Assembly (NCBI GenBank): GCA_964402415.1
Contig: CAYOCI010000006.1
Span: 16,020-80,019 of the forward strand
Source of the DNA: an uncultured Clostridia bacterium
Lineage (GTDB): Bacteria; Bacillota; JAAYKD01; CAYOCI01
Length of the DNA stretch: 64,000 nucleotides
Direction: 5' to 3'
Positions 22,907 through 55,960 of this stretch are shown here, piece by piece. The notes under the pieces were generated by a model, which was not told the origin of the DNA, did no database searches, and saw only the letters and a program-made list of their open reading frames with translations. The position numbers were made by a program, and so were the translations under genes. Position 1 is the stretch's first letter. Each line of letters starts with the position of its first letter.

Positions 22907-23020
22907 ACCATTCTCTCCTTCCAGATTTGATACACTCCTTGGACGTTGCTTCCAGCCATAGAGTTCGCCAAAATTGGCAGGGTTTGGGGGTATAGTGCAA
23001 AAAGGACAGGCAAAATTTGA

Positions 23021-23057: not shown

Positions 23058-23072
23058 ATCGATTCTCCTTGA

Positions 23073-34663: not shown

Positions 34664-34721
34664 GGTCCCGTCCTCCTCCACCCATGTACCGTCGTCATTG
34701 ACTTCATCATTACAACCTCAA

Positions 34722-35085: not shown

Positions 35086-35140
35086 CACCTCTTCCTACTT
35101 TTCTACGCCAATCCCACCACTACACGGAGGACGTGAAGTC

Positions 35141-39596: not shown

Positions 39597-40034
39597 TTAC
39601 TGAAAGAGTCTGATACCAGTCTTGCGTGCTAGCGCGTCCCATGCGCTCCAGTCCAGATCCATCACCTCGAGCCAGAAGACGAGATAGACCAGGGGCAAGG
39701 CGATCAGGGCGTTGATCCAGAGATAGGAGGCAAAGAGAATCGTGCTGAGAAGGAAGACGATCCCGCCGATGGCCCCCGCCTTCGCCCAGTAGCCCCTGTG
39801 CATCAGCAGCACCCAGAAGCAAGTCTGAGCACCAGCGAACAGGAGCAGGGAGAAGACCTGCAACCATAGCGGTGAGGAGCTGACGATCGATCTAAGCCAA
39901 GGGAAAAGAGCGCTATCGCCCAGCCCCTTCACCATCTCAGGGGCAGAGATCGCCAGGTACAGGTTGACGAAGCTCGTGAATATGAAGAGGAGACCATAGA
40001 ACGTCTTGATGCCGTTTCCTAACGTGCGGCTCAT
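39597..40034 (-). CDS. Hypothetical integral membrane protein
   Basis: 145 aa with four TM helices. AGAGGTGA RBS 6 nt before the ATG. Confidence 0.5.
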   Translation of the reverse strand: MSRTLGNGIKTFYGLLFIFTSFVNLYLAISAPEMVKGLGDSALFPWLRSIVSSSPLWLQVFSLLLFAGAQTCFWVLLMHRGYWAKAGAIGGIVFLLSTILFASYLWINALIALPLVYLVFWLEVMDLDWSAWDALARKTGIRLFQ

Positions 40035-40611
40035 GGTATCACCTCTGGGTGCTGGAATGGGTTACGTTTCCAGCATAGGGGTATGTCATCTTTCTGTCAA
40101 TGAGCTGCTACTCCTCAACGGAGACTAGGAACATGCCATCTTCGAAACCGCCACGCTCGGTGGGCTTCACACACCGCAGCTTCTCGGGGTATGCGCGACC
40201 CGCTGTGCTTCACCGCGCCGCCTATCACTGTATTCGAGCAGCGGACATAGGTAAGACACGCTGCCCGCTTCGGTCGACGGCGAGGAATCTGCGTGAATGA
40301 CGTCTTGATTGTGAGATTTGCCCCATTAGGAATTGCCTGTGTCTAGCCGCAATATTGTCACATGCTGCCAGATGCCGACGGGATAAACACGAATCATGGA
40401 GGAATTGACGCGGTGAACGAGAATACAACATGTGAAATCTCAGAATCTGTCATTAAGGGGCACATAAGTGGACTACGCTAACTCGCTGCATTAGGAGACA
40501 ACAAGAGACGAGCTCACGAAATCTGGTTCGGTAAGGGTAGCGAGAGCGGCATTCATATGGGCTTTAGGATGGATAAGCACACTACACTGAAACACAGGAT
40601 GGACTTCGTTT

Positions 40612-41847
40612 ATGGATGGAAAAGCAGTAAACTTCATAGATCTATTTGCAGGTGCGGGCGGTCTGTCCGAGGGATTTGTGTCTGCGGGGTATAGTGCCAT
40701 TGCTCACGTTGAAATGAGCGCAAGTGCCTGTGATACCTTGAGAACTCGGGCCTGTTATCATTATCTGACCCAACACGGTATGTCGGCTATCTATGGAGAC
40801 TACCTCAGCGCTAAGATATCTCGACAACAGCTATACGCATCCGTCCCGAAATATGTTCTCGACTCCGTTATCAACCTGACGATGGGCGATGTAGCGATGG
40901 ATGAGATATATGACCGTATCGATGAAGCGATGATCGCACGGGATATCTCAAAAATCGAACTGATTGTAGGGGGCCCCCCCTGCCAAGCGTATTCCCAGGT
41001 TGGTCGCTCCCGAAAATGTATGGATGATGATCCCCGTAATCACCTCTATGAGCTATATTGCCAAGTGCTAAAGAGATATGAGCCGGAGATGTTCGTATTT
41101 GAGAATGTTCCAGGACTACTGACTGCGGGTGGAGGCAAGTATCTGCAGAGCATCCAAGCTACATTCAGGGAATCTGGATACGAGCCAGACTTTCGAGTGA
41201 TAGATGCGGCTGACTTCGGGGTGCTGCAGCAACGAAAGAGAGTCATTCTGATAGGATGGAAAATCGGGACTACGCATAGTTACCCAACTTTTCCAAGGAT
41301 CGACCATCCTTACACCGTCGCGGATATTCTGAATGATCTGCCGGCAATACAGCCCGGTGAAGAAAGAACCCAATATTGTCCGGGCGATTTCAGTCAATAC
41401 TTGCAGGATACCATGATTCGAACGGTAGGTGACATGTTGACGTGGCATGTGGCTCGGCCTCATATTGAGCGGGACCGTGAGATTTACCGAAAGACAATCG
41501 ATGCATGGAATGCAGGCCATAGGCGCCTCAAATATGACACCTTGCCTGACGAACTATGTACTCACAGGAATCGAAGTGGATTTCTTGACCGCTTCAAGGT
41601 AGTTGCCGCCGATCTTCCCACAAGCCACACGGTAATGGCCCATATTTCGAAGGACGGGCATTACTTTATCCACCCAGATATCGACCAAGCACGGTCAATC
41701 TCGGTTCGTGAGGCGGCGAGACTTCAGTCGTTTCCCGATGACTTCTATTTTGAAGGGTCACGCACCGCAGCATTTAGGCAGATCGGCAACGCAGTTCCAC
41801 CTCTAATGGCTAAGGGAATCGCAGAAGGACTTTTTAAGGAGTTTTGA
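40612..41847 (+). CDS. dcm: DNA (cytosine-5)-methyltransferase
   Basis: Motif I 'FIDLFAGAGGLSEGF', motif IV 'GGPPCQAYSQVGRS', motif VI 'FVFENVPGL', motif VIII 'QQRKRVILIG', motif X 'FRQIGNAVPPLMA'. Confidence 0.92.
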   Translation: MDGKAVNFIDLFAGAGGLSEGFVSAGYSAIAHVEMSASACDTLRTRACYHYLTQHGMSAIYGDYLSAKISRQQLYASVPKYVLDSVINLTMGDVAMDEIYDRIDEAMIARDISKIELIVGGPPCQAYSQVGRSRKCMDDDPRNHLYELYCQVLKRYEPEMFVFENVPGLLTAGGGKYLQSIQATFRESGYEPDFRVIDAADFGVLQQRKRVILIGWKIGTTHSYPTFPRIDHPYTVADILNDLPAIQPGEERTQYCPGDFSQYLQDTMIRTVGDMLTWHVARPHIERDREIYRKTIDAWNAGHRRLKYDTLPDELCTHRNRSGFLDRFKVVAADLPTSHTVMAHISKDGHYFIHPDIDQARSISVREAARLQSFPDDFYFEGSRTAAFRQIGNAVPPLMAKGIAEGLFKEF

Positions 41848-41862
41848 CAGGAGGGCATACAT

Positions 41863-43917
41863 ATGGCAACCGATCTGACCATAACTAAGTTCTACAGTGA
41901 GCTCCGTGATCAGATCCTACTGGCTGCTGACACCGAAACGAGTGGCTGGCAAGATGAGGACTTCCTGACATCTGCTATGCTCGACTATCTCGAAGAAGCG
42001 GGAGAAGTGGACACGCCTATTATCTGCCCGTTCAGAGAGCGTGGCCTGCAGCTTAACGCCTACGCGATTTCCGAGGACTATGAGTGTGTAGACATATTCG
42101 TCAGCATATTATCCGATGGTGAAACGCCTCAGAGCGTCTCCCAGACTGATGTTGACGCTGCTGTAAAACGTGCACTCCAGCTTTATCGTAAAGCCACCAA
42201 TGACCTCTATACTTCTTTTCAGAGGGACAATGACACATATGAGTTCGCTGTGACTATTCACAAGAAAAAAGCACTAATAAAGAAGGTCCGCGTTATTGCT
42301 TTGACTAACGGACTTGTCAAACCAATAACATTCAAGGACGTGACCGTTGATGGCGCGCAGATTTCCTTTACGGTATGGGATATCGATCGTCTCTATCGTT
42401 GCTGCACGTCCGGCAAAATGCGTGAAACGATTGAAATAGACTTTGAGGAACAGTTCGGTACTGTCATTCCCTGCGTAGAGAACAGATCGAGTGAAGCGTA
42501 TAGTGTGTATCTCGCAATACTGAATGGCGAAATGCTAGCGACTTTGTATGAGGTGCACGGAGCTAGATTACTTGAGAGGAATGTTCGCTCCTTTTTGCAG
42601 GTGAAAGGTCAGGTTAACAAAGGCATACGAGACACACTCCGCGATGAACCCCATATGTTCCTTGCCTACAACAATGGGATCTCCGTTACTGCCGAGAGCG
42701 TTGAGATCGTCCGAGACGATAACGGGAAGCCTTCAATCAAGAAGATACGCGATTTGCAGATCGTCAATGGAGGCCAGACCACAGCTTCCATTTTTAGTGC
42801 TAGGAAAGACAAGAAAAATGCAGCAGACTTATCACATGTATTCGTCCAAATGAAACTGTCTGTCATTAATTCTGCATCGCAGATGAATGAAGTAGTGCCG
42901 AAGATATCGGCATTTGCCAACACGCAAAATAAAATACAAATGGCGGACTTCTCTGCAAATGATCCGTTCCATAGAAGAATTGAAGAACTCTCACGAACCA
43001 TATGGGCCCCGGCGCAGAGCGGTATGAAGCCCCAAAATTGGTTCTACGAGCGTGCTCGTGGTCAATATGCGGATATGCTGTCTCGCGAATCCACTACCTT
43101 GAGAAAACGACACTTCAGAGAGGAACATCCGCTTTTTGCGAAGACGGATCTAGCACGATACGAGAACACTTGGGATCTACTTCCTCATCATGTGAGTGAA
43201 GGCGCACAGAAGAATTTCCGCAGATTTACACTTCGCTTGGCAGATCGCGGACATATCCTTCCCGATGAGGCCTACTTCAGGCATCTAATTGCAAAGGCAA
43301 TCCTGTTCAGACGGACCGAGAAGCTCGTTCAGCAGCAACAATATGGTGGGTACCGGGCCAACATTGTGACCTACACACTTGCGTGGCTGTCCTTTAAGAC
43401 GGCGCAGCGAATCGACCTCGAACGCATATGGAAAGAACAGGCACTCACCGAACACCTCGAGCGAGAGATTGTCGAGGTATCGAAATTCGTCCGGCACCTA
43501 ATCGTCAATCCACCTGGTGGAGCCAATGTTGGCGAGTGGTGCAAGAATGTAAAGTGCTGGAGTGCCATAAAGGAATATGAGCATGAGATTAGTGAGGGGC
43601 TAAAGGCAGAGCTGATCTCGATTAGTCGTCCGACCGCATCAACTGCACCAGTTAGTAGCATATCATCCGCTACCGCAGCAGAACAGGAAACCATCAACCA
43701 AGTATGTGCTATCGAGCCATCAACTTGGTTCGCGCTATCGAGATGGGCAAAGGAAACAAACAATTTCTTGCCTTGGCAACGCAGTCTTCTGTTCAGTGTC
43801 GGTACGATTGTCGGCAGGAAGCAGAGGCCGAGCCCTAAGCAGGCGACTCATGCATGGCGAACCTATGTGGATGCCACCGAGAAGGGCTTTGTCCCATCAC
43901 GTACAGAGCTGAGGTGA
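41863..43917 (+). CDS. AIPR-like (abortive-infection phage-resistance family) protein
   Basis: 684 aa with an AGGAGGG RBS, 15 bp after dcm. The acidic N-terminus and the 'LQIVNGGQTTASIF' motif match my recollection of AIPR-family proteins. Family assignment is not verified. Confidence 0.5.
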   Translation: MATDLTITKFYSELRDQILLAADTETSGWQDEDFLTSAMLDYLEEAGEVDTPIICPFRERGLQLNAYAISEDYECVDIFVSILSDGETPQSVSQTDVDAAVKRALQLYRKATNDLYTSFQRDNDTYEFAVTIHKKKALIKKVRVIALTNGLVKPITFKDVTVDGAQISFTVWDIDRLYRCCTSGKMRETIEIDFEEQFGTVIPCVENRSSEAYSVYLAILNGEMLATLYEVHGARLLERNVRSFLQVKGQVNKGIRDTLRDEPHMFLAYNNGISVTAESVEIVRDDNGKPSIKKIRDLQIVNGGQTTASIFSARKDKKNAADLSHVFVQMKLSVINSASQMNEVVPKISAFANTQNKIQMADFSANDPFHRRIEELSRTIWAPAQSGMKPQNWFYERARGQYADMLSRESTTLRKRHFREEHPLFAKTDLARYENTWDLLPHHVSEGAQKNFRRFTLRLADRGHILPDEAYFRHLIAKAILFRRTEKLVQQQQYGGYRANIVTYTLAWLSFKTAQRIDLERIWKEQALTEHLEREIVEVSKFVRHLIVNPPGGANVGEWCKNVKCWSAIKEYEHEISEGLKAELISISRPTASTAPVSSISSATAAEQETINQVCAIEPSTWFALSRWAKETNNFLPWQRSLLFSVGTIVGRKQRPSPKQATHAWRTYVDATEKGFVPSRTELR

Positions 43918-43923
43918 CGGGCA

Positions 43924-46503
43924 GTGCTAGAGTGGAATGACTACATACGAACTGTCCTCTTGGAACCAGCTGTATTTGATAACATAAACCTGACCATCAA
44001 CGGTGAGAGAGGTCTGACACCCGTTCCGCCGATTATCAAGGCAAGCATCGTAATGCTTGACCAGATAATTGCAGGGCAAAGCAAATATAATATTCTGGTC
44101 TTCCCGGAGAAAACACAGACCGCCTTCATCTTTGCGCTGGCTAAGGCTATCTATAACATAGGTGGTGGCAAAGTCCAGCTTACGTATGACCCACACATGT
44201 TTGCGCAGGGACAGAAACTGAAATATAAGAACTGTGTAATGGAGTTCAGCCATATCGAGAGCAAGTCAGGATATGAGCTAATTCATGTCAGATTCGCCGA
44301 AAAACTCACGTATGGGCTTCCCATTGAAATAGCGCCTCATCTTCAACTGGCAGAGACCAACCGTCTCTCTCGATTTCCCACATTCGCAAGTGTGTTCGAT
44401 GTTAGGGAGGCTCAGAAGAAGAAAGCATCGCAGTCGGCTGATCTCATTGAGCTTCTGCAAAACTACAGAACCCACATCGGCAGCTCTATTTTCTACGTCG
44501 CATCGATTCTAAGCACGAAGGAATATCTTAGTGGCAGCACCATAAATGGCAGCAAGTTACAGGATGTTCTATTGTTGAGCCACGCAAACCTGGAGGGTGG
44601 TATCAAACCGCTGAGCGCAGGGCAGTTGACCGGTAACCCCGCTATTGTCCTTGCGGCGAACCTGTATGCTGTCACTAATGCTATGGGCAAGGGCGCATCA
44701 CTGCAGTCGGTGATCGCCGATATATCAAATGTAGGCATCGTAGAGTCCCAGCTGGATGCCATGGATGAGCTCATGAGAGCAGGTATTCCCATCACGTGTG
44801 TTACGGATGTGGCAAACTCGTTTGAGCTCCAACCGTTGATTGACCGGGGGTACAACGTATGGAGATGGGACCAAGATAGCATTACCTCAGAGCTGTACGG
44901 CGTCTCGAACATCATCTCGGACTACAAGACGAAGCATTGCGCCAAGCGCAAAATTGAGTATGTCACCGTAGACGGGCAGGAAATAAGCGACTCTCTCAGA
45001 CTGTTATACTCTCGCAGAGAAGAGGTTTCAGATCAGTCGGCGCGAATGATAAGCGCCTTTGATAGATTGTTCTCAATCGCCTTTACAGCGTTGAGGACAG
45101 TCCACCCGCATACCCCATCTAGCTTGGCCAGGATGCATCAGGTGCTGAGCGATTGCGAGTTCGACCTACAACAGGAGCAGAGGTTTATATCCGATGAGGC
45201 CTACAACGATCATTCCGAGGTGATCCGCGGGCTTAAGAAGACCATCTGTTCAGGTTATGCACTCCCGAAACATGACGCGCTGGCAGAGCATCTGCTGTCT
45301 CATCACTATCGCAATATCTGCATAATTGTACCCGACAGAACGGATAAGGCCGCCTGCCAAGCCTATTGGATCGGCTTCTGCAGTCGTGAACACCTTCAGA
45401 CGGATGTGACGGTTATGTACCCATCCGAGTACTACGCTCTAAGCCGCTTTGCGTTTAATGCTACTGTTATTGTTGGTTGGCTCAACAATAGTATTATGCG
45501 AAAAGTGCTGTACAGCTTCAATACCGAAACATACGTGGTGTTGCTCTATGATTACGAAAAACGCTGGCAGAAGGCACACGTCGCCGCCTGGAACCGGGTG
45601 CTGAGTAACGAGAACAACCGAACTATCATTCGGAAATATCTCGCCAAGCCGACTGTCGATATCTCGACAGCAAGATTTAGCGACAGTGCCGCTCCTACCC
45701 CGTCTTCCGCAGCCGACGAACTGGGTGAAGTTGAGCGGATTCTCCGTGAGAATAAGTACCGCCAGTATGTAGCGCGAGGTGGTCAGCGAGCAGCCGATAC
45801 TATCGAAGCGGTGCCTGTGAACTTTGTTGGAGGCTACCTATCGTTCTACCGGTTGCCTCATAGGATCGTCACGGCAACCGATATTATCGTGAACGACGAT
45901 GATAAGATAGTCACCACGCTACCGATCGAGCTGAAAAACGGTGACTTTGTCATTGTCAGAGAAAGCGGCCGTGATCTCATCAAGGAAATTGCTGACAGGA
46001 TACTTGCTAGTTGCGGCAAGGCAGGTCTTCGTGATACTGCCATGAAGTGGAAAGAAGCGCTTACACTTGAAACTGTCTTCTCGACTGAGTTACAGATAAT
46101 ACAAAAGTTTACCGCAGCTGGATGCAAACGCAGTGTGCAGACAATCCGTGGCTGGTTGTCAAATGAAGATATCATCTCTCCGCAGGACAGAGATGATCTG
46201 GAGAGCATTGCATTGATAACCGAGGATACTGTGCTAATGGAGAAGATTGACGAAGTTTATTCTGCTGGTCGCGAAGTGAAAAACGCTCACGTACAGGCGG
46301 GTAAGTACTTGTCTGATCAACTCAAACAGAAGATCGCAGCCGAACTACAGGCATTTGGCGAAATCGACCCGTTCAATATTTGGGAGCCCATTACTCTCCA
46401 GCTCGAGAACATCGGGACTGTTAGAATTCTGAAGGTCATAGACATTGGCACACCTGTTGTCGTTGATATGGCAGACACGAACCGTCTGATAGTAGAGGGG
46501 TAA
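43924..46503 (+). CDS. Large hypothetical protein, defense-island component, no recognisable catalytic motif
   Basis: 859 aa; GTG start with a GAGGTG RBS 6 bp after the AIPR stop. No clear P-loop, HxK or PD-(D/E)xK motif found by eye. Confidence 0.5.
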   Translation: MLEWNDYIRTVLLEPAVFDNINLTINGERGLTPVPPIIKASIVMLDQIIAGQSKYNILVFPEKTQTAFIFALAKAIYNIGGGKVQLTYDPHMFAQGQKLKYKNCVMEFSHIESKSGYELIHVRFAEKLTYGLPIEIAPHLQLAETNRLSRFPTFASVFDVREAQKKKASQSADLIELLQNYRTHIGSSIFYVASILSTKEYLSGSTINGSKLQDVLLLSHANLEGGIKPLSAGQLTGNPAIVLAANLYAVTNAMGKGASLQSVIADISNVGIVESQLDAMDELMRAGIPITCVTDVANSFELQPLIDRGYNVWRWDQDSITSELYGVSNIISDYKTKHCAKRKIEYVTVDGQEISDSLRLLYSRREEVSDQSARMISAFDRLFSIAFTALRTVHPHTPSSLARMHQVLSDCEFDLQQEQRFISDEAYNDHSEVIRGLKKTICSGYALPKHDALAEHLLSHHYRNICIIVPDRTDKAACQAYWIGFCSREHLQTDVTVMYPSEYYALSRFAFNATVIVGWLNNSIMRKVLYSFNTETYVVLLYDYEKRWQKAHVAAWNRVLSNENNRTIIRKYLAKPTVDISTARFSDSAAPTPSSAADELGEVERILRENKYRQYVARGGQRAADTIEAVPVNFVGGYLSFYRLPHRIVTATDIIVNDDDKIVTTLPIELKNGDFVIVRESGRDLIKEIADRILASCGKAGLRDTAMKWKEALTLETVFSTELQIIQKFTAAGCKRSVQTIRGWLSNEDIISPQDRDDLESIALITEDTVLMEKIDEVYSAGREVKNAHVQAGKYLSDQLKQKIAAELQAFGEIDPFNIWEPITLQLENIGTVRILKVIDIGTPVVVDMADTNRLIVEG

Positions 46504-46517
46504 GGGGGTACGGCAGC

Positions 46518-48254
46518 ATGGCGAGAATGATTCCTTCAACTATATCCCCTGCCGTAAAAAGCAACGCAGAACGAAGGATCTTCGAGTGGTTTCGTGATGA
46601 CCCGCTGACCGTAGACTGGGTTGTACTACATTCATTGGGGATTACAAACCATAACAGAGTCATCCATGGAGAGATCGACTTTGTCGTCTTGGCGCCCAAC
46701 CTCGGTCTGTTTGCGCTGGAGGTGAAGGGTGGCCGGGTGAAGCAAGAGAGCGGAGTATGGCATTTTACCGACAAACACGGGGCATCAGGCAGAAAGGTGC
46801 GAGGTCCGTTCGACCAGGCATGGGACGGAGTGTTCAGCATCGTTGCATCGCTTGTCGACAAACTGGATGCGTCGCATCGGTACATGGCCGAGATGTTGTA
46901 CGGGATCGGTGTTATGTTTCCGGATATCACATACACCGCCATTAGCGTGGACGAGGAACAATGGCAGGTCTTCGACTGCAATGACGGCAGAAAAGTAGGC
47001 GCGTTTGTTCAGAGAGTTGCCGCTGGCACCAGACGGAAGTGGGAAGAACGCTACGGCCCCTTGAGAAGTTCAAAGCTGCCGTCCACTAGAGATGTCGAGT
47101 ATATCGCATCTCTCCTACGTGGGGATTTTGACAAGGCAGTTGCGGTCAGTGTTCAGCTCCGCAATGCGGAAGAGGAGCTCGTCGAACTAACAAAAGAGCA
47201 GTATAGGTGCCTTGACCAGATTGATGATAACCCCAGATGTGTGATCCAAGGCGCGGCGGGAACCGGTAAGACGCTTCTCGCTATTGAAGAAACAAAGAAG
47301 GCTGCAGCTGCTGGTGAGAAGGTGGCACTGTTCTGCTTCAATGCTAACCTCGGAGAGTGGCTCAGAAGCCACTTCTCCAAGATGTCTTACAGCTTGCGAC
47401 CTGCCTATGTAGGGACATTTCACAGGTATATGGCACAGATGACTCTTCGCGGGAGCGCTAATCTCAGGCAGCCATGTGACGAAGATATCCAGCGGTTCTA
47501 CACTGAGGATCTGCCGGAGGCTGCAAGTGTTGCATTGCAGCACGGGTCAGACAAGTATGACAAGATCATCATTGATGAGGCACAAGACCTGATCAAACCG
47601 CAGTATCTAGATGTCATGGACTTATCACTAAAGAAGGGCTTCTACCGGGGAAAGTGGACCATGTATGGCGACTTTTCCATGCAGGCGATATACTCTGGTG
47701 ATAGGAATGGCGATGAACTTAAGGAAATTCTTGAGCACCGAACGGCATTCATCTGGTTCAAACTGACGATGAACTGCCGCAACACCAAGCCAATATGTGA
47801 GGAGATTGAGACGGTTACAGGGTTCCATCCGCCGTCTAGCGTATGGGTAAAGACTGATGGCCCACCGGTTAACTACCTTACTTACTCCTCTCAAGCAGAG
47901 CAGAGGACAAAACTGCAAGAGTTGCTTACATCGCTGATGAGCAATGGCATCGATAAGCGGAAGATCACTATTTTATCGCCAGTGAGGCGTGAGAATTCCG
48001 TTGTCTCTCAGATTGACGACTTTGATATTCGCGATTTCCAGGTCAGTTCACTTGACGATATCACCTTCTCTACCATTCAAGCATACAAGGGGCTTGAGAA
48101 CACCGTGATAATACTTACAGATATCGACTCATTTCAGTCGGATAAGCTTATGTATGTTGCACTGAGTCGAGCAAGAGTTGGGCTGAACGTTCTGACATCA
48201 GACTCTGCACACAGTGAGTATCTTGAACTCCAGCGGAGGAGGTTTATGCCGTGA
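46518..48254 (+). CDS. NERD-domain nuclease fused to a UvrD/AAA_30-like P-loop ATPase
   Basis: NERD pattern 'GEIDFVVLAPNLGLFALEVKGG' at the N-terminus. Walker A 'GAAGTGKTLLA', Walker B 'KIIIDEAQDL', UvrD-C-like 'FSTIQAYKGLENTVIIL'. Its stop overlaps the next gene's GTG (GTGA). Confidence 0.7.
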   Translation: MARMIPSTISPAVKSNAERRIFEWFRDDPLTVDWVVLHSLGITNHNRVIHGEIDFVVLAPNLGLFALEVKGGRVKQESGVWHFTDKHGASGRKVRGPFDQAWDGVFSIVASLVDKLDASHRYMAEMLYGIGVMFPDITYTAISVDEEQWQVFDCNDGRKVGAFVQRVAAGTRRKWEERYGPLRSSKLPSTRDVEYIASLLRGDFDKAVAVSVQLRNAEEELVELTKEQYRCLDQIDDNPRCVIQGAAGTGKTLLAIEETKKAAAAGEKVALFCFNANLGEWLRSHFSKMSYSLRPAYVGTFHRYMAQMTLRGSANLRQPCDEDIQRFYTEDLPEAASVALQHGSDKYDKIIIDEAQDLIKPQYLDVMDLSLKKGFYRGKWTMYGDFSMQAIYSGDRNGDELKEILEHRTAFIWFKLTMNCRNTKPICEEIETVTGFHPPSSVWVKTDGPPVNYLTYSSQAEQRTKLQELLTSLMSNGIDKRKITILSPVRRENSVVSQIDDFDIRDFQVSSLDDITFSTIQAYKGLENTVIILTDIDSFQSDKLMYVALSRARVGLNVLTSDSAHSEYLELQRRRFMP

Positions 48255-50944
48255 CTGACAACCGAAGAGAGCAGCTACTTGATATCATAAAAAGAGAGTT
48301 TATTGGCCCAGACCCCGTAGACATCCCAGGCATGATTCAGGAAAACGGTGAAGAAATTCTGTCTTCGGATCCTCCCCGCGTTCGCTATGCTGCCGGTATT
48401 CTCTTTCCGCAATGCGCTTTGCCGGAAACGGTTGATCCGGTGGCGGATGAAGGGACCCCTGGTGCAGAGGTTGATGACGCCGAAGTGGCTGAAGGGGCCA
48501 CCCCCCATGGCGAGTCTTCAGGCGATAACTACGAGTATCTTGAAGATGCGGAAGAGCTCATCAATCTTTCCAATGCTTATCGTCAGTCTGCCATAAGCCT
48601 TACCGTGGCACTAAAGGATGAAGATGATCTGACTGCACTCGTGACGGCCGGTTCTTATACAATGATCAACGTTACAGATCCCATTACGGGAAAACAGTCC
48701 ACCCGGTATCCCCGGGCAGGCATATCGTGGAATAACGACGGAATGCCGCTGAGAATGCCTAGTGTGAATTCCCGTATTGTGAAAACCGAGATTAAGGGTA
48801 CCTACCTTCGGTTTGACATTACCTACCGTTATCGTCAGAGTGGTTATTCCATCTATACATTTACATTAGAGAATACGAAGATCAACAGCACCGATTCAGT
48901 TCGTGACGAGGAATGCTATTTTCAAGCGGCATTTCAGCTTGTATCTTCAAAAGGCTTCAGCCCCCTGCCTGGCAGTCAGCGTATCAACACGGATGACGAG
49001 GACTACTGGTCTAATCAGCTTCTATACAGAAATGTAGAGAATTACGCCATTGGTCACGGCTGTGCGGCTGACTGGGAGGGGGTGGAAGGTCGGATATCTA
49101 GTGTTAGGACATCAGTATTCCCGTCCTATGAAGTCAAGCCGATTGTGCCAAGCGTAATCCCTGGGGTATCTCTTGACATGTTCAAGATGAGCGATCTAGG
49201 TGACTTTTCCGAAACAATAGGCGAACTGGAGAAGCTCTGTACAGCATACAGGGGTTGGATAGATGGGCTCAAGGCTGCAACCATCAGTATTGCTGATAAC
49301 TATAAGGACACCGCCAACAGGCATATTGCTAATTGTGAAGCTTGCCTTGAGCGTATGTGTGATGGTGTTGAACTACTAAAGAGTGATGACAAAACAAAGC
49401 TGGCGTTCCAGTACATGAACCGAGCAATGCTGCTGCAGCAGCTCCACTATAACCTCCCGCTGCAGAATTGGGGTGTTGATGATAACGGCGGCATAAAACT
49501 GGAGAACCCGGTAACGCAACTGCCGATTATCTCCGATCTGTCAACGTGGCATGGCGATAGGACGAGGTATGGGAGATGGAGGCCCTTTCAGCTTGCGTTT
49601 ATTCTCATTAACCTGAGGTCAATGGCAGATAAGCAATGCAACGACCGCAGGAAAGTCGATCTGATATGGTTTCCGACCGGTGGCGGCAAGACCGAGGCAT
49701 ATCTGGGCCTGTCGGCTTACACGATCTTCATTCGTAGACTATACAACAGGGATGACGCCGGAACCACGATTCTTATGCGATATACACTGCGCCTATTGAC
49801 TGCACAGCAGTATGAGCGAGCTTCCGCCATGATCTGCGCCTGTGATCTGATTAGAAAAGAGCACTCCGCTAGTCTGGGAGATACTCGCATAACCATAGGT
49901 CTTTGGGTTGGAGGCGACACTACGCCAAACAGTACGAGCGATGCAGTCAAGGCATACGACAAGCTATATTCTGGTAGAAGTGATGTAAACCCCTTCGTGA
50001 TGCTAAAATGTCCGTGGTGTGGTGCCCAGATGGGTAGGGTTATAAAGCGAGATAACTCGTTCGAAACACCTGGATATAAGAAGATTGGTGGACGCAAAGC
50101 CCGCGTGGTATTCCAGTGCGCAAACTCTGAACATGGGTGCGAATTCTCTGTGAGTGGCAATGAACTGCCGCTGTACGTTGTTGATGATGACATCTATGCT
50201 AATACGCCCACACTGCTGCTTGGTACCGTGGATAAGTTCGCTATGCTCCCGTTTAGGCCACAGGCACAGGCAATTTTTGGGATGTACGATGGGCAGAGAC
50301 TTTCATCTCCAGACTTGATAATCCAGGATGAGCTCCACCTGATTTCCGGCCCATTGGGTTCCATGGTCGGTCATTATGAAACTCTCATTCATGAGCTCTG
50401 TACACAGAGGACAAGCTCCGGGGTAATCCAGCCGAAAATAATAGCATCCACTGCAACCATTAGCCGCGCAAAGGAACAGTGCCATGCCCTCTATGCCTGC
50501 GGCACCGATAGTGTTTTCCAGTTCCCACCTTCAGGTCTAGATGCTGGAGATTCGTTTTTTGCAGTTGAAAATACGAGTGGTACTGGCAGGCAGTACGTCG
50601 GAATCCTCGCTTCTGGCGCTTCCTCAGACGCAACGACAGCAATCCGGCTGTTTGCTTCTCTGCTCTACGGTGCTAAGGCCATTAATGTGGCGTCGGAGGA
50701 ACTTCGAGATCCCTATTGGACCAATATCGGCTACTTCAATAGTATCCGTGAGTTAGGACAAGCCGCCACATGGATTCGTGCAGATATCGACGAATATCTT
50801 CATGTCATATATAAGCGTAAGTATGAGGACAAACAAGAGGGCTATAGGCAGAACCGCAGATATATGTGGGACGACGAAGAACTCCCGAGCGGTGTTCGGA
50901 GCTATAAGATCCCATTCCGCCTACAGAAGCTCGGTATCTGGTAA
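48251..50944 (+). CDS. DExH-box SF2 helicase, DrmA-like (N-terminal part with motifs I–III), ending at an in-frame TAA
   Basis: Motif I 'FPTGGGKTEAYLGL', motif II 'IIQDELHLISGPLGS', motif III 'ASTATISRA'. About 400-aa N-terminal domain of unknown function. The reading frame continues after the TAA at 50942–44. Confidence 0.7.
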   Translation: MTDNRREQLLDIIKREFIGPDPVDIPGMIQENGEEILSSDPPRVRYAAGILFPQCALPETVDPVADEGTPGAEVDDAEVAEGATPHGESSGDNYEYLEDAEELINLSNAYRQSAISLTVALKDEDDLTALVTAGSYTMINVTDPITGKQSTRYPRAGISWNNDGMPLRMPSVNSRIVKTEIKGTYLRFDITYRYRQSGYSIYTFTLENTKINSTDSVRDEECYFQAAFQLVSSKGFSPLPGSQRINTDDEDYWSNQLLYRNVENYAIGHGCAADWEGVEGRISSVRTSVFPSYEVKPIVPSVIPGVSLDMFKMSDLGDFSETIGELEKLCTAYRGWIDGLKAATISIADNYKDTANRHIANCEACLERMCDGVELLKSDDKTKLAFQYMNRAMLLQQLHYNLPLQNWGVDDNGGIKLENPVTQLPIISDLSTWHGDRTRYGRWRPFQLAFILINLRSMADKQCNDRRKVDLIWFPTGGGKTEAYLGLSAYTIFIRRLYNRDDAGTTILMRYTLRLLTAQQYERASAMICACDLIRKEHSASLGDTRITIGLWVGGDTTPNSTSDAVKAYDKLYSGRSDVNPFVMLKCPWCGAQMGRVIKRDNSFETPGYKKIGGRKARVVFQCANSEHGCEFSVSGNELPLYVVDDDIYANTPTLLLGTVDKFAMLPFRPQAQAIFGMYDGQRLSSPDLIIQDELHLISGPLGSMVGHYETLIHELCTQRTSSGVIQPKIIASTATISRAKEQCHALYACGTDSVFQFPPSGLDAGDSFFAVENTSGTGRQYVGILASGASSDATTAIRLFASLLYGAKAINVASEELRDPYWTNIGYFNSIRELGQAATWIRADIDEYLHVIYKRKYEDKQEGYRQNRRYMWDDEELPSGVRSYKIPFRLQKLGIW

Positions 50945-50995
50945 CCCTCTGCGGCGGGTGAAAAGCGACCGGTAGACATCTGCCTTGCCACAAAC

Positions 50996-51640
50996 ATGAT
51001 CTCTGTTGGGGTTGATGTGCCGCGGCTTGGCCTCATGACTGTATCAGGCCAGCCTAAAATGACATCCGAGTATATCCAGGCGACGAGTCGTGTCGGCCGC
51101 GACAGTGCGTCTCCTGGTTTAGTGTTTGTGTTGTATCGCCCTGGACGACCTCGAGATAAATCCCATTATGAGCAGTTCAGGTCTTACCATTCTAGAATGT
51201 ACTGCAATGTTGAGCCGACTAGCGTAACGCCATTTTCTGCACCGTTGCGAGAAAGGGCTCTACATGCGATCATGATTGGCATAATGAGACTTGAGGGAGA
51301 TAAGGCCTTCAATGCTGATCCACCTCGTCTTCCAGATAATCATACTCTTGAGTGTGTGTACAGTGTTATTCGTAAGCGTGTAGAAGCTGTCGATAGTAAT
51401 GAACTGGAAGCAATGCTCAACCGAATGGATGAGGTGTTGCGGGACTGGGAGGATTGGGGCCCTCAGAAATTTCAGGATTTCACTGCGATGGATGCTGTAC
51501 CGCTCATGTTTCCTTCCGGAACTATGAGAAATGAGGCGTGGGGTAACCGGGGACTATCCACACCGACATCCATGAGAAGCGTAGATTCCTCGTGTGAGGC
51601 ATACGTGCTGGAAAACAGATATTGGTCGGAGGATGTTTAA
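50996..51640 (+). CDS. Helicase C-terminal fragment (motifs V–VI), same frame as 48251..50944
   Basis: The in-frame sequence just upstream of the first ATG reads '…PVDICLATNMISVGVDVPRL' (motif V), and 'QATSRVGRDSASPGLVFV' is motif VI. Together with the upstream ORF this makes one helicase of about 1,130 aa. Confidence 0.65.
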   Translation: MISVGVDVPRLGLMTVSGQPKMTSEYIQATSRVGRDSASPGLVFVLYRPGRPRDKSHYEQFRSYHSRMYCNVEPTSVTPFSAPLRERALHAIMIGIMRLEGDKAFNADPPRLPDNHTLECVYSVIRKRVEAVDSNELEAMLNRMDEVLRDWEDWGPQKFQDFTAMDAVPLMFPSGTMRNEAWGNRGLSTPTSMRSVDSSCEAYVLENRYWSEDV

Positions 51641-51641
51641 G

Positions 51642-53483
51642 ATGGCGTTCTCAAAAAAGCCTATGCGTCGCAGCCAGCTAATCAGTCCATGGGGCGTTGG
51701 TGCAATTGTACCGTTTCCTGACGATGAATCTCTCATGATTGCCGGACTTGATATGTGGCGATACAACTCAACTGATGGGTTCCTCATAAAAGATGAACGC
51801 CTGCAAAGGCGTCTTGGTGTAAAGGAGTTGCGCTGGCCACCGGATTTTAGAGATCAAAAAACCGATGCCAGGAATTACAATCTGAAAATTCCTGCGGTTA
51901 AGTTTCCGAGGTGGCACTACTGCCCTTTCTGCGGGACCATGCAGAAGCTAACATATTACACTAACGCTGCTTACTGCGATGGGTACCCTTGGCCGCACGG
52001 TCGTTCCTGTGCTTCCAAGAAGAAGTTCGGACGCAGGCTGATTCCTGAAAGATTCGTTGTCGTTTGCCCCGATGGACATATCGATGACTTCCCAGTCGCA
52101 GAATGGTTACACCAAGACGGTGAGCATTCATACGATCCAAGTAAATGCCATATCCGCAGAAGTACCGGTGGCACCTCAGCATCACTAACGGGTGTGTTCT
52201 ACGAATGCTCCTGCGGAGCAAAACGGTCCATAGCCGGAGCAACAAGACCCGGAGCTTTGAAGAAGATAGGGTATCGGTGCAGAGGTGCTAGGCCTTGGCT
52301 TGGCGTGGAGAAAGACGACGACAGCCCATGCGATCGTGATGACGTCAAGGTTCTTCAGCGTGGTGCCACAAATGTGTGGTTCGCCGACACCAGAAGTTCA
52401 ATTCATATCCCGACAGACGATGAATCACCCAGCCGCCGCATCGTTGGTATACTTGATCAGTTTCTTGACCCCCTGAGAAGTCACCGCATAAACGGTGAAC
52501 TGAATCGCGATTTCATAAGGATGCTCGCAGAAGCCAATTTCGTCAATGCCGATGATCTATATGCAGCTGCTGTAAAGAGACTAGTAAATATCGAATGCCT
52601 GCCAGAGATAACCGAGGACATGTCGGAGGACGACTACCGCTTAGCCGAATACAAGGTTCTTATCAAGAGCAGCGGCGGCGATACTCTTGACTTTCACTCG
52701 ATCAACTACCCCATTTCTGTATATGATCCCGTGCTTCATAAGTATTTCAGGAGCATATCTTTAGTACCTAAACTCAGGGAGACACGCGCATTTGTGGGGT
52801 TTTCGCGTCTTGAGCCCAGTATTATGGACATATCTCAAAGAAAGAGAATGTTGCGGTTAGGCAACGGGGGGTGGCTCCCAGCCATCGAAGTGTATGGTGA
52901 AGGCATCTTCTTTGAGTTCAATGCCGATATGCTTAAGCAGTTCGCAGAGAGAACAGGGGTTCAGGACCGGAGTGAAAAGCTTGATAGAGCGTATCATGCA
53001 TCGAGTTTCGGGAAACATGCTTCCGGTAGACTCAGACCAGAGTTTGTGCTAATACACACGTTTTCCCACCTGCTAATAAATCAGCTTGGCTTTGAGTGTG
53101 GCTACGGCAGCTCATCCATTAGGGAACGTATTTACTGCGAAAAGACCAGCAATGACCACGAGATGTATGGGCTACTCCTTTATACAGCCTCTGGTGATTC
53201 TGAAGGTTCGCTGGGCGGTCTTGTTCGGCAGGGTGAAAAAGGCCGTATTGAGGACACCATCATGTCCGCGCTGAAGAACGCCGCATGGTGCTCGTCCGAC
53301 CCTATCTGTATTCAGTCTAAGGGCCAAGGCCCCGAGTCTTGTAATCTATCTGCTTGTCATAACTGTGCCCTTCTGCCCGAAACCTGTTGCGAGTGCGGGA
53401 ATCGTCTACTAGATAGAGGGGTTGTGGTTGGCACTCTTGCCGAACCAGAACTTGCGTTCTTTGACAATGCTAGGATACAGTGA
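51642..53483 (+). CDS. DUF1998-domain protein (DrmB/MrfA-C-terminal-like zinc-ribbon)
   Basis: GGAGGATG-type RBS before the ATG at 51642. Several Cys clusters ('HYCPFCG', 'CSCG') and a C-terminal 'WCSSDPICIQS…CNLSACHNCALLPETCCECGN' typical of the DUF1998 four-Cys module. Confidence 0.65.
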   Translation: MAFSKKPMRRSQLISPWGVGAIVPFPDDESLMIAGLDMWRYNSTDGFLIKDERLQRRLGVKELRWPPDFRDQKTDARNYNLKIPAVKFPRWHYCPFCGTMQKLTYYTNAAYCDGYPWPHGRSCASKKKFGRRLIPERFVVVCPDGHIDDFPVAEWLHQDGEHSYDPSKCHIRRSTGGTSASLTGVFYECSCGAKRSIAGATRPGALKKIGYRCRGARPWLGVEKDDDSPCDRDDVKVLQRGATNVWFADTRSSIHIPTDDESPSRRIVGILDQFLDPLRSHRINGELNRDFIRMLAEANFVNADDLYAAAVKRLVNIECLPEITEDMSEDDYRLAEYKVLIKSSGGDTLDFHSINYPISVYDPVLHKYFRSISLVPKLRETRAFVGFSRLEPSIMDISQRKRMLRLGNGGWLPAIEVYGEGIFFEFNADMLKQFAERTGVQDRSEKLDRAYHASSFGKHASGRLRPEFVLIHTFSHLLINQLGFECGYGSSSIRERIYCEKTSNDHEMYGLLLYTASGDSEGSLGGLVRQGEKGRIEDTIMSALKNAAWCSSDPICIQSKGQGPESCNLSACHNCALLPETCCECGNRLLDRGVVVGTLAEPELAFFDNARIQ

Positions 53484-53491
53484 GGTGTACC

Positions 53492-54520
53492 ATGTATGTT
53501 ATTCTGTCTCAAAAGGTGGATACGGACTCCATTTACTCCGATGATCTTTTCAACACTTATCACTATCCAGCACGATATAAGAACCAGTTACACACTGGGG
53601 ATATTTTCATCTACTACCAAGGAAACCGGTATAAGAGTGAACACCGGTACTATTTCGGTGTCGGTACCGTTGGAGAGATCCTCACGACTGACGGTGAGAG
53701 CTACTATGCCAGACTGCTTCGGTGTCGACGCTTCGAAAATCAGGTCCCCATTTATGTCCCCGATGGCGGCTATGTGGAACAGAGAGGTTATGAAAGCGTT
53801 CGGCGGAGCCTAAACCCGCCATGGCAGACTTCGATTCGTCCTTTATCCAAGGATGCATACGATTATATCATCGAGAAGGCAGGAATATTGATCAGTACCA
53901 ACCCAGATCAAGAAATCGACGTGATGAAGAACGCTCTGAAGAGGTCTCTTAAGGAGTTCTACCTAGGTGGTAATCAGAAGGCAATTCTATCCGTTGTTAG
54001 CATTGCCCAGCAAATTGCTGATACTCTGCAACTTGGAGCAGTTGCTGTGTGCGAGGATACAGTCACAGCGTTTAGCGCAGCTCAAACACCCGATCCGACA
54101 CAGCAGAAGACCAAAACCATGTTCTTCGACTACTGCAGAAGCATGAGAATGTCATATTCCTATAAGCCAGTGCTCATACTGGCAGTTCTAGATTGCGGAG
54201 TAGAGAAAGGGCAAGTTTCTATTGAAAGAGCTGCTTGCTACTTCAGAGATTACTATACCGAGCGCCGTAAGAACGGGCTGAAAATAGAGAAGGGCAACTG
54301 CATCTATCAACGTGGTGACGTAGATATGCAGCCGATAGCTGGCAACATCGTGGCGAATCCAGTAAAGGCGCTTATCGCTAGCGGGTACTTTGAACATGAT
54401 AGGACTGCCGGATTGTTCGGTTTCGCTCCTCGACTATGGGCGGAGCTTTCGCGTGATGATCTGTCTCACATCAGAGGCGTGTGCGTAGCGAAGCTGGAGA
54501 ACTACTATTCATCGAAGTGA
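53492..54520 (+). CDS. Hypothetical protein, possibly with a PUA/EVE-like N-terminal domain
   Basis: GAGGTG RBS 6 nt before the ATG at 53492, 9 bp after the DUF1998 gene. N-terminal beta-rich aromatic segment 'YVILSQKV…YHYPARYKNQLHTGDIFIYYQGNRY…YYFGVGTVGEI'. Second domain 'YSYKPVLILAVLDCG'. Confidence 0.5.
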   Translation: MYVILSQKVDTDSIYSDDLFNTYHYPARYKNQLHTGDIFIYYQGNRYKSEHRYYFGVGTVGEILTTDGESYYARLLRCRRFENQVPIYVPDGGYVEQRGYESVRRSLNPPWQTSIRPLSKDAYDYIIEKAGILISTNPDQEIDVMKNALKRSLKEFYLGGNQKAILSVVSIAQQIADTLQLGAVAVCEDTVTAFSAAQTPDPTQQKTKTMFFDYCRSMRMSYSYKPVLILAVLDCGVEKGQVSIERAACYFRDYYTERRKNGLKIEKGNCIYQRGDVDMQPIAGNIVANPVKALIASGYFEHDRTAGLFGFAPRLWAELSRDDLSHIRGVCVAKLENYYSSK

Positions 54521-54723: not shown

Positions 54724-55095
54724 TTGGATCCCAAGTCCTTTTTCTGCGGGTCCGACGAATCCTACTACTTCGCTCTCGGCCAGCTCCTGGTCCACGTCTT
54801 CAACCTCATGGGTGGGGTAGACCGTTACCGCAAGGAGTTTAACTACCTGACCAATCCGAGCTTGGCCTACCCCGTGCAGAAACTGAACTCACGGATCGTG
54901 CACTTTCTCCGGCGCGCTCGTGAGCGCTACGAGCTGGGCCCGGACGCTGAGCAGCTTCTTGACGCTGTGCTTTCCTATCAGCCAGGGCATCAGGACGAGC
55001 CCCGGCATATCGAGAGCTTGGACGACGCTTTCTACTCTGGGATCCATGCCGATAGCACCCTCGGCGGGAGGACTTCATCCGACTGTCGGGCCTAG
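54724..55095 (+). CDS. Hypothetical protein, uncertain gene (TTG start, no clear RBS)
   Basis: 123-aa ORF at the right edge of the low-GC island. An alternative short ATG ORF at about 54649 overlaps it. Confidence 0.25.
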   Translation: MDPKSFFCGSDESYYFALGQLLVHVFNLMGGVDRYRKEFNYLTNPSLAYPVQKLNSRIVHFLRRARERYELGPDAEQLLDAVLSYQPGHQDEPRHIESLDDAFYSGIHADSTLGGRTSSDCRA

Positions 55096-55213
55096 CCCCG
55101 TCCAGATAGTCCCAGAAGACTAGGACCTGAGTACGATGCCCTGTTCCACCCAGTTGTGCTAGAATCCCCGTAGAGAAAACGCTGCCACTTGCGCTCATCG
55201 GGGAGGGGTAGAG

Positions 55214-55522
55214 GTGGATAACGTCTATCAAACCATCGGCGACAAGACGCTGATCTTTACGATCTACAGGGGTGCACCCCGAGCCGCGCTTATCGACAGT
55301 GAAGACCTCGGGGCGGTGGCATCGGTCGATGGCAAGTGGAAGATCGGCCAAGACAATCGCTTCTTCCTGGCGGAGCGTAGCGGAGTGGAGCAACAGGTCA
55401 TTTACATGCACGATATCATCATCGGTGCCCTCGCGCCTGGGAATAGGACCCGGCGGGTGGCGCACATCAATGGTGACGGCGCAGACAACCGGAAGGGAAA
55501 CCTGATGTTTCTTAAGGACTGA
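55214..55522 (+). CDS. HNH endonuclease (HNH_3/AP2-associated type)
   Basis: 'VIYMHDIIIGALAPGNRTRRVAHINGDGADNRKGNLMFL' carries the H…N…H(I)NG(D)…DNR…NL motif. Ends 9 bp before the terminator hairpin that begins repeat copy 1. Confidence 0.65.
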   Translation: MDNVYQTIGDKTLIFTIYRGAPRAALIDSEDLGAVASVDGKWKIGQDNRFFLAERSGVEQQVIYMHDIIIGALAPGNRTRRVAHINGDGADNRKGNLMFLKD

Positions 55523-55715
55523 CAAAGACAAGGACGGTGTCCGCGTGGCGGACACCGTCCTTGTTCGTACATTGCTAATCCCTGCCCATACCCCTAGCCA
55601 GCTAGTCAGTAGGAACTGCAACCGCGCGATCAGCATCGAGCAGCGGCTCATGACAGCGTTACCGAAAGAAGCGCCGAAGCCGATCATCATGACCCAGCGG
55701 CCTGCCTTGGTGATG
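55522..55715. repeat. Direct-repeat copy 1: terminator hairpin plus about 150 bp duplicating the 3' end of gene 59252..59857
   Basis: Hairpin 'ggacggtgtccgc-gtgg-cggacaccgtcc' (55532–55560), then 'ttgttcgtac…gtaggaactgca…gagcagcggctcatgac…gatcatcatgacccagcggcctgccttggtga'. Matches 59198–59395 at about 85–90%. Confidence 0.8.
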
Positions 55716-55960
55716 ATCGCACGGCGCCATTGCGCGCAGGCACTCCCTTGTTGTTTCGGCAGCATCCACGGGATAGTCTCCAATCGTCCCACGACGGGCC
55801 AGCATCTCCGACCCTCCCTGGTTTCTAATACAGGCGGCAGAGTCATGCCTTCATCCTGGCGGTGATATCGCGTAGGACCCGCATGACGGCTTCGAGCTCA
55901 TCGAGTGCGTTCACACTCACTGCAACCTAGACAATGGCTTGTGATTGCAGAGCAGAGGCT

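Follow-up and report, generated by a model that had tools for sequence, protein, structure and literature searches.

The locus described here raises a simple question. In a 64,000-nucleotide stretch of DNA from an uncultured Clostridia bacterium (referred to below as the window), the coding sequence for a helicase of the DrmA type is interrupted by a stop codon, and it may be asked whether this represents a mutated gene, an error in the contig, two separate genes, or a stop that is read through.

One gene and one premature stop

The first-pass annotation had described two open reading frames (ORFs) that lie in a single frame and are interrupted by one TAA at 50942–50944, and our translation agrees with this description. 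The frame from 48251 to 51640 contains 1129 codons and is otherwise continuous; the TAA, read directly off the plus strand of the window as codon 898, is its sole internal stop. The two ORFs, 48251..50944 (897 amino acids, with a GTG start preceded by a GGAGGAGG Shine-Dalgarno sequence) and 50996..51640 (214 amino acids), both begin at positions equal to 2 modulo 3. The parts of the gene that figure in the argument are the following.

48251..50944, plus strand: 5' part of drmA, 897 codons and the premature TAA, encoding the N-terminal chassis, RecA1 and the first half of RecA2
50885..50941, plus strand: cluster of lineage-private, mostly radical substitutions, drmA codons 879–897
50942..50944, plus strand: premature in-frame TAA, codon 898, at a Tyr/His column in homologues
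50945..51640, plus strand: 3' remainder of drmA in the same frame, 231 sense codons and the natural TAA, encoding motifs V and VI and the C-terminal region

That these parts belong together is indicated by profile comparisons. The N-terminal part matches the PADLOC DrmA profile PDLC02575 with E=1.3e-159 and the C-terminal part matches positions 608–829 of the 837 in the same profile with E=1.7e-58, while the Pfam DEAD and Helicase_C scores both exceed their cut-offs. SF2 motifs I (FPTGGGKTEAY, residues 474–484), II (DELH, 693–696), III (ASTAT, 732–736), V (LATNMISVGVDV, 912–923, encoded by 50984–51019) and VI (QATSRVGR, 943–950, encoded by 51077–51100) occur in order, all at columns that are invariant across 25 aligned sequences. 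Motifs V and VI lie beyond the stop, and a motif-IV-like element, ELTSR in the family (residues 877–881), precedes it. The residues immediately after the TAA read PSAAGEKRPVDICLATNMISVGVDVPRL, exactly as quoted in the first-pass annotation, which had recognized a clean motif V in the codons between the two ORFs, with motif VI following. Its placement of the stop between motifs III and V is likewise correct and can be refined to the interval between the ELTSR element and motif V.

Judged by its sequence, the product of the joined frame corresponds over its full length to DrmA, the YprA-type SF2 helicase of DISARM, and the earlier description of a DrmA-like helicase is borne out by the PADLOC profile, by the structural match and by the motif alignment. 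The structural match is to DrmA of Serratia sp. SCBI (class 1 DISARM; 7S9V/7S9W, PMC9142583), a member of the same helicase family, which aligns as 7S9V_A with E=5.9e-141 over residues 249–1048, a range that takes in motifs I, II, V and VI and the ELTSR element. The Serratia protein is intact, has 1325 amino acids and belongs to a class 1 system, whereas the present ORF ends inside RecA2 and has ELPSG in place of ELTSR. A chance juxtaposition of two ORFs was rejected, because both halves match one DrmA profile and uninterrupted homologues align with 100% of the joined frame. An alternative genetic code was also ruled out; TAA closes 9 of the 29 long ORFs in the window and is a normal stop here.

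The first-pass annotation had proposed that orthologues be inspected for a sense codon at the position of the stop, and such a codon is what they have. All of the 119 best homologues are single proteins of 1120–1151 amino acids that cover 99–100% of the joined query at 62–72% identity; at the column of the stop, 115 have Tyr and 4 have His. The gene is uninterrupted in 80 of 80 related genomic loci, among them one (L001) with the same gene order and a single drmA of 1129 amino acids, and every related locus has a sense codon at this column, mostly TAT (28) or TAC (12). Apart from the source's own coding sequences (P0001 and P0143), two protein searches found no DrmA closer than 72–73% identity; a megablast search of E. 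coli genomes and plasmids for close orthologues gave no match, and neither did an exact-pattern scan of metagenome contigs with the DNA around the stop.

On these comparative grounds, the ancestral state is shown to be a one-gene drmA. Both RecA lobes and the C-terminal region would be expected in one uninterrupted ORF, and here the TAA at codon 898 intervenes. Since the homologues and related loci are all uninterrupted, the present gene would be a disrupted member of the DrmA family. Moreover, because the column of the stop holds Tyr or His, a single TAY to TAA transversion at the third codon position would suffice to explain the stop.

A DISARM island of class 2 type

The interrupted gene belongs to a conserved, low-GC island of seven genes, which has been acquired horizontally by an uncultured Bacillota bacterium. 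In addition to drmA, the island contains the following genes.

40612..41847, plus strand: C5 cytosine DNA methyltransferase of DrmMII type, intact (Pfam PF00145, E=1e-59)
41863..43917, plus strand: AIPR (abortive-infection phage-resistance) protein (PF10592, E=1.3e-101; PF22879, E=8e-39)
43924..46503, plus strand: DrmE, intact (PF24957 DrmE_C, E=8e-9, 35.9 bits against a curated cut-off of 27 bits)
46518..48254, plus strand: SF1 helicase of UvrD/NERD-associated type, intact (PADLOC RTasNERD-Hel, E=3e-40, and several SF1 helicase Pfam families)
51642..53483, plus strand: DrmB, the DUF1998/MZB zinc-binding partner of DrmA, intact (PADLOC DrmB, E=6e-68; PF09369, E=1.9e-8)
53480..54520, plus strand: 346-amino acid protein where DrmC usually sits, no family match, conserved in the closest loci

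The genes other than drmA are full length and deviate from their homologues only conservatively. The methyltransferase has 3 deviations, all conservative, at 125 conserved columns, DrmB has 4 mild ones at 128, and the SF1 helicase has none. Two of the genes are extra. The AIPR gene is kept in the closest relatives of the island, and 16 related loci have a homologue in the corresponding place; the SF1 helicase gene, conserved beside drmA, is present in 68 of 81 related loci. DrmE has 859 amino acids, compared with 865 in L001, and is preceded by a GAGGTGA Shine-Dalgarno sequence; the search of 43924–46503 against PADLOC gave no DrmE match at E≤1e-3. DrmB has its own ribosome binding site, GGAGGA, 8 nucleotides upstream of the ATG at 51642. 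The 346-amino acid protein has homologues that hold the same position in L001 and in a second locus, L003. It gave no match, even at E≤5, to Pfam (including PLD), PADLOC (including DrmC) or NCBIfam, and a single-sequence AlphaFold model of it has a mean pLDDT of 36. A search of the island borders revealed neither a tRNA nor an integrase nor flanking repeats.

This gene content is best described as a class-2-like variant of DISARM. The reference point is the Bacillus system of Ofir et al. 2018 (drmE-drmA-drmB-drmC-drmMII), in the summary form in which it is given in bioRxiv 10.1101/2021.12.28.474362. The present island shares with that system DrmA, DrmE, the C5 methyltransferase (PF00145) and a DUF1998/MZB DrmB encoded directly downstream of DrmA, all in one co-directional island. 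It differs from class 2 DISARM in adding the AIPR and SF1 helicase genes, in having a drmA that is broken by a premature stop, and in that no PLD-domain DrmC was detected, the 346-amino acid protein without a family match being found instead. It has been reported that drmC is dispensable for defence (bioRxiv 10.1101/2021.12.28.474362).

The account that we favor, and that we consider probable, is that the single-gene drmA of this class-2-type DISARM island has been knocked out by a change of the Tyr898 codon from TAT or TAC to TAA, so that the restriction arm is off. The starting point would have been a single 1129-codon drmA in the horizontally acquired island, and the event itself would have been a transversion at the third position of codon 898.

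Alternatives to a recent knock-out

The two-gene arrangement and the read-through arrangement may be considered together, as both would make the interruption functional, either by TAA read-through, for low-level tuning of a system prone to autoimmunity, or by re-initiation to yield a split helicase. The 3' part does remain an intact and conserved ORF, an in-frame ATG (50996) is present 17 codons past the stop, and the base after the stop is C; a C following UAA is a comparatively weak termination context in E. coli. Many proteins of about 214 amino acids in the databases, beginning MISVG..., also resemble the split C-terminal part. These fragments are not natural split genes, however, and a natural two-gene architecture was rejected when two of them were traced to their loci: the split in L084 is a 17-N scaffold gap, and L082 carries a truncated remnant beside a relaxase gene. 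The first-pass annotation had stated that its proposal of one interrupted gene would fall if orthologues proved to be two genes, each with its own start and ribosome binding site, and this was not found; the 119 proteins and 80 loci contain neither a stop nor a split at this point. None of the in-frame ATGs at 50996, 51035 and 51059 is preceded by a Shine-Dalgarno sequence, which is present in 5 of 6 other island genes (GGAGG-like sites precede AIPR, DrmE, SF1 helicase, DrmA and DrmB), and a restart at 50996 would leave out the beginning of motif V. The fold of the RNA from 50925 to 51045 is no more stable than the folds of its shuffles (z=0.35), the window contains neither an Rfam match nor a tRNA, and near the stop the consensus matches to an internal promoter or terminator are at chance level only. 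In addition, the stop is UAA, the least leaky of the stop codons. Programmed read-through and naturally split genes also present two collinear in-frame ORFs parted by one stop, but the stop in the present case is unconserved in relatives, is not accompanied by a stimulatory structure and, being UAA, is less leaky than UGA or UAG would be, and the second part has no start or ribosome binding site of its own. Without a Shine-Dalgarno sequence or RNA structure, and with TAA serving as a normal stop in the window, a two-gene design or programmed read-through is not supported by the sequence, and we consider a functional interruption of either kind highly improbable. The first-pass annotation had likewise put a nonsense mutation or a sequencing error first and had ranked read-through below them, an order with which the homologue, locus, ribosome binding site and folding data agree.

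The codons that precede the stop present an oddity that is unexplained. The changes T879P, R881G, I882V, D885Y, S890R and K/R897W form a cluster that ends at the stop, and the first two of these convert the invariant ELTSR to ELPSG. With the stop included there are 7 private changes in 20 codons, compared with about 1.1 expected (Poisson P=1.6e-4). Such a dense radical patch just upstream of the stop would not be expected from one simple and recent point mutation; the patch could reflect unreliable local sequence, or the gene could have been impaired before the stop arose. Template switching, gene conversion and DGR-like mutagenesis were rejected as sources of the cluster, as far as one window shows: there are no inverted or direct repeats above chance, no 12-mer from 50860–50965 has a second copy in the window, and the inferred base changes are not confined to adenines.

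The same patch bears on the possibility that the TAA arose during base calling or assembly of the contig and that the organism itself has an intact drmA and a functional DISARM system. The source, an 80-kb contig, is probably from a metagenome-assembled genome of a poorly sampled Bacillota lineage, to judge from singleton protein clusters and from closest named relatives that carry the label 'MAG: Bacillota bacterium'; the 231 downstream codons are open and normally conserved, as an error would leave them, and the stop terminates a 60-nucleotide patch with six more odd substitutions at conserved sites, which could be a bad consensus. Against this, every other gene of the island is unbroken and none deviates radically at conserved sites, so that the assembly is not generally poor. 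Further, the patch consists of substitutions only, with the frame kept, whereas errors in long-read consensus are mostly indels and those in short-read consensus are usually far less dense than this. We regard an error as unlikely, although a realistic possibility.

The age of the event can be judged from the conservation of the two sides of the gene. Past the stop the 231 codons run on without a further stop or frameshift, there are 5 mild deviations at 120 conserved columns (A to S three times, T to M twice) compared with 2–9 in intact long-branch homologues, and the identity to the nearest relatives, 71–77%, is that of an intact homologue (P0007). Because these codons are open and conserved as in intact homologues, we infer that the event is recent, or else that it is a consensus error. 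Over the gene as a whole, the query-private deviations number 8 at columns at least 95% conserved and 13 at columns at least 90% conserved; these totals fall inside the range for intact homologues, and gene-wide pseudogene decay was rejected on this basis. Their distribution is uneven, all 13 of the latter lying at residue 749 or beyond and none at the 331 conserved columns before it (Fisher tests: 0/331 vs 8/84, P=2e-6; 0/331 vs 5/120, P=1e-3), while the N-terminal part of comparably long-branch intact homologues has 6–20 deviations. This asymmetry is what might be seen after an older knock-out, with the cluster arising by relaxed selection on a useless half of RecA2 in a decaying pseudogene and the N-terminal 748 residues kept for a residual role, for instance as a scaffold for DrmB or DrmE. 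But in an older pseudogene the untranslated 3' part should decay fastest, and it shows mild changes and normal identity to relatives in an undamaged frame; moreover, the excess divergence is limited to about 20 codons and does not extend over the C-terminal third. An old knock-out combined with N-terminal retention therefore seems very improbable. The interruption does not represent a new mechanism but either a knock-out mutation of the ordinary kind or a base-call error.

Probable consequences for DISARM function

With a recent knock-out, translation would stop inside the RecA2 lobe, and the 897-amino acid product would retain the N-terminal chassis, RecA1 and half of RecA2. Missing from it would be motif V, motif VI, which contains the arginine finger required to hydrolyse ATP, and the C-terminal region, which in the solved structure of DrmAB is wrapped around DrmB and makes contact with DNA. 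In the Serratia protein the latter region is a pivot arm around DrmB, and mutation of the DNA-contacting R1294 lessens protection (PMC9142583). Such a truncated helicase could presumably neither hydrolyse ATP nor translocate, and restriction would be off, while the methyltransferase, AIPR, DrmE, SF1 helicase and DrmB are intact. Since the product would have neither motifs V and VI nor the arm that grips DrmB, the restriction arm is most likely dead, with the methyltransferase intact. Loss of function, together with any selective reason for it such as relief from its cost or from autoimmunity, is what we infer from the homologues.

The literature gives two precedents. In class 2 DISARM, deletion of drmA abolishes protection, according to the passage of bioRxiv 10.1101/2021.12.28.474362 that cites Ofir 2018. 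In class 1 DISARM, some protection survives deletion of drmABC (bioRxiv 10.1101/2021.12.28.474362), and because of this some residual activity of the island is possible by analogy. Going by the class 2 literature, it is also plausible that the knock-out may tune an autotoxic system, as the first-pass annotation had suggested. A stronger version of this idea, to which we assign only a slim chance, takes both the stop and the ELTSR cluster to be real and adaptive, reflecting stepwise attenuation and then the switching off of an autoimmunity-prone helicase. The 897-amino acid DrmA, which has no deviation at the 331 conserved columns of its first 748 residues, might then be kept for a role of its own, perhaps that of scaffolding or regulating DrmB, DrmE or the methyltransferase, or else a small amount of read-through product might hold the helicase at a low and safe level.

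The preferred reading, a recent knock-out, resembles the familiar point-mutation pseudogenes of restriction and defence genes, in which there is also one nonsense mutation in the motor or restriction part, an intact methyltransferase alongside and a gene that is recognizable over its full length. There is no difference in kind, only the tight radical cluster right before the stop being unusual here, and current understanding is unchallenged by the disrupted drmA. For annotation, the two coding sequences of the source record (897 and 193 amino acids) belong to a single disrupted drmA, and the proper entry for the island is a DISARM-type system whose helicase is inactivated, rather than an active defence. 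The knock-out agrees with the reported cost of class 2 DISARM, in which loss of drmMII is deleterious, without proving that cost. If the stop is real and the truncated protein is kept by selection, this would be a DrmA allele in which functions have been separated naturally. For the present, the locus joins other defence islands in which the methyltransferase is retained and the motor component knocked out.

A single in-frame stop within drmA

Read directly, the sequence at 50940-50946 is GG TAA CC, and the TAA at 50942-50944 is in frame with the GTG start codon at 48251. This frame is shared by the next ORF, 50996-51640; translated as a whole, 48251-51640 comprises 1129 sense codons and a single internal stop, at codon 898. 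PSAAGEKRPVDICLATNMISVGVDVPRL is encoded directly after the TAA, followed by QATSRVGR. The first-pass annotation had described one TAA separating these two ORFs, with the codons for helicase motif V and then motif VI beyond it, and the sequence, the frame check and the translation agree with it on each point.

The two pieces match a single PADLOC DrmA profile, the N-terminal part with E=1.3e-159 and the C-terminal part with E=1.7e-58 at profile positions 608-829 of 837. In Pfam the first piece matches DEAD, and the second matches the final third of Helicase_C. Read through the TAA as one chain, the protein aligns with the structurally solved DrmA from Serratia sp. SCBI (7S9V) at E=5.9e-141, and five helicase motifs all fall at invariant alignment columns.

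Helicase motifs of the joined DrmA (residues of the 1129-codon frame)
Motif I, FPTGGGKTEAY, residues 474-484
Motif II, DELH, residues 693-696
Motif III, ASTAT, residues 732-736
Motif V, LATNMISVGVDV, residues 912-923
Motif VI, QATSRVGR, residues 943-950

The stop is situated within the second RecA lobe, past an invariant ELTSR element (877-881) and ahead of motif V.

Each of the 119 homologues that match the joined protein best is one undivided protein of 1120-1151 aa (62-72% identity, query cover 99-100%); the one truncated entry is the 897-aa CDS called in the source genome itself. Comparison with orthologues, proposed earlier as a check, finds a sense codon at the stop column, Tyr in 115 and His in 4 of the 119, followed by a near-invariant Pro. 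In related genomes this codon is mostly TAT (28) or TAC (12), so that one third-position transversion yields TAA. The possibility that relatives carry two separate genes was also examined, and drmA is without internal stop or frameshift in 80 of 80 related loci from different species, although these were best-scoring matches and the sampling is therefore biased toward intact genes; the lone stop in drmA of the related locus L051 is its natural terminator. A second protein search returned many DrmA C-terminal proteins of about 214 aa that start with MISVG and mimic a split gene. The two on longer contigs were checked, and neither is a natural split gene. In L084 (5971-5989) a scaffold gap of 17 N falls exactly there and the stop-equivalent position encodes Tyr, while L082 (1189-1833) carries a truncated drmA remnant that borders on a relaxase gene and still has drmB and the counterpart of the 346-aa gene listed below attached to it.

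The surrounding DISARM island

drmA lies within a co-directional block of seven genes, 40612-54520.

Genes of the island
40612-41847, +, C5 cytosine methyltransferase (PF00145, E=1e-59)
41863-43917, +, AIPR, an abortive-infection gene
43924-46503, +, DrmE (PF24957)
46518-48254, +, SF1 helicase (NERD/UvrD-type)
48251-51640, +, DrmA
51642-53483, +, DrmB (PADLOC E=6e-68; PF09369)
53480-54520, +, 346-aa protein in the usual DrmC position, conserved in the related loci L001 and L003

Judged by its components drmA, drmB, drmMII and drmE, which belong to the class 2 set (bioRxiv 10.1101/2021.12.28.474362), the island is a class-2-type DISARM. The published class 2 set lacks AIPR and the SF1 helicase, both conserved here; the helicase adjoins drmA in 68 of 81 loci examined and AIPR was found in 16 related loci. 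The gene order recurs in the loci most closely related to this one, L001 and L003 among them. No PLD DrmC was detected in the island, and the 346-aa protein has no match in Pfam, PADLOC or NCBIfam (its single-sequence AlphaFold model has a pLDDT of 36). The disrupted drmA belongs to a known gene family, and the defence system around it can be recognised as a variant of a known one.

At 0.48-0.50, the GC content of the island (40000-54500) lies below the 0.54-0.64 of most of the sequence around it, a difference suggestive of horizontal acquisition; its borders showed no tRNA, integrase or flanking direct repeats. GC is highest in the window (0.62-0.64) at 29889-36325, just upstream of the island region, where an SbcCD-like pair (Metallophos nuclease, 29889-31160; AAA_27/SMC-type ATPase, 31157-34663) precedes an RtcB RNA ligase (35141-36325). 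Directly beside the island a 334-aa ORF (54839-55846, -) was assigned no family in Pfam and NCBIfam scans, nor was a 1045-aa ORF (19952-23092, -) in an NCBIfam scan. For the FprA protein of the host, the best matches with a name are entries titled 'MAG: Bacillota bacterium', at 70-73% identity.

Divergence on the two sides of the stop

The 231 codons past the TAA contain no further stop or frameshift, and at 120 conserved columns they show only five mild deviations (A to S three times, T to M twice); the matching region of intact homologues on comparably long branches has 2-9. Identity of this part to its nearest relatives is 71-77%, equal to that of the intact homologue P0007, and the neighbouring island genes have conservative deviations only. 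An open and normally conserved 3' part points to an interruption that is recent, or else not real.

Ahead of the stop the pattern is different. The 20 codons that end at the stop carry the private changes T879P, R881G, I882V, D885Y, S890R, K/R897W and Y898stop, or 7 changes where the overall rate of the gene predicts about 1.1 (Poisson P=1.6e-4, uncorrected for the choice of this interval). The six substitutions other than the stop (50885-50941) are lineage-private and mostly radical, and they destroy the ELTSR element, to which T879 and R881 belong; this element does not vary in 118-119 of the 119 homologues, and Serratia DrmA has it too. Every change in the cluster replaces a single base, in most cases by transversion; indels are absent, and no repeat, quasi-palindrome or donor copy that might explain it was found in the window. 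It may have arisen in one clustered mutational event, by stepwise attenuation followed by knock-out, or as a short stretch in which the consensus is poor. The private deviations at columns conserved to at least 90%, 13 in total, all fall at residue 749 or later; residues 1-748 (48251-50494) have none at 331 such columns (Fisher P=2e-6), and comparably divergent intact homologues have 6-20 in their N-terminal part. By this comparison the N-terminal two-thirds is unusually canonical for a gene bearing a knock-out. Gene-wide decay does not fit, because the excess divergence is restricted to the stretch ahead of the stop.

Origin and consequence of the interruption

The TAA is probably a real, recent and inactivating nonsense mutation. 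An error in the sequence is considerably less likely, and it stays plausible because the 3' part is perfectly preserved and the contig is probably metagenomic in origin; nucleotide and protein searches found no near-identical second sequence. Against an error, the rest of the island is clean and the patch is made of substitutions only, features that mildly favour real mutations. It is very improbable that the knock-out is older and the N-terminal fragment has been retained.

Equally improbable is a functional read-through or split design, since the 3' part has no support from expression signals. A GGAGG-like Shine-Dalgarno precedes the start codons of AIPR, DrmE, the SF1 helicase, DrmA and DrmB by 6-10 nt, and none lies ahead of the in-frame ATGs at 50996, 51035 and 51059, the last being the start of the source record's second, 193-aa CDS (P0143). 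Shuffled sequence folds as well as the RNA around and downstream of the stop (z=0.35), the window contains no Rfam match or tRNA, and promoter-like and terminator-like matches near the stop are at chance level. The genetic code is standard, because TAA terminates 9 of the 29 long ORFs in the window. With homologues uninterrupted and recoding or restart signals absent, the first-pass ranking of nonsense mutation or sequencing error above read-through holds.

In the DrmAB structure two RecA lobes make up the ATP site, and mutation of ADP-contacting residues is described as lowering defence (PMC9142583). Motifs V and VI and the entire C-terminal region are missing from the 897-aa product, which would be incapable of ATP hydrolysis or of coupling to DrmB. 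DrmB itself can still be produced, because it has its own ribosome-binding site, barring a polarity effect on transcription. For class 2 DISARM it is reported that drmA deletion abolishes protection and that loss of drmMII is deleterious (bioRxiv 10.1101/2021.12.28.474362, citing Ofir et al. 2018). Given such a truncated product and the effect of drmA deletion, the most likely state would be a dead restriction arm with the methyltransferase retained. A disrupted drmA is ordinary in kind, and the main use of the finding is in correcting the annotation.
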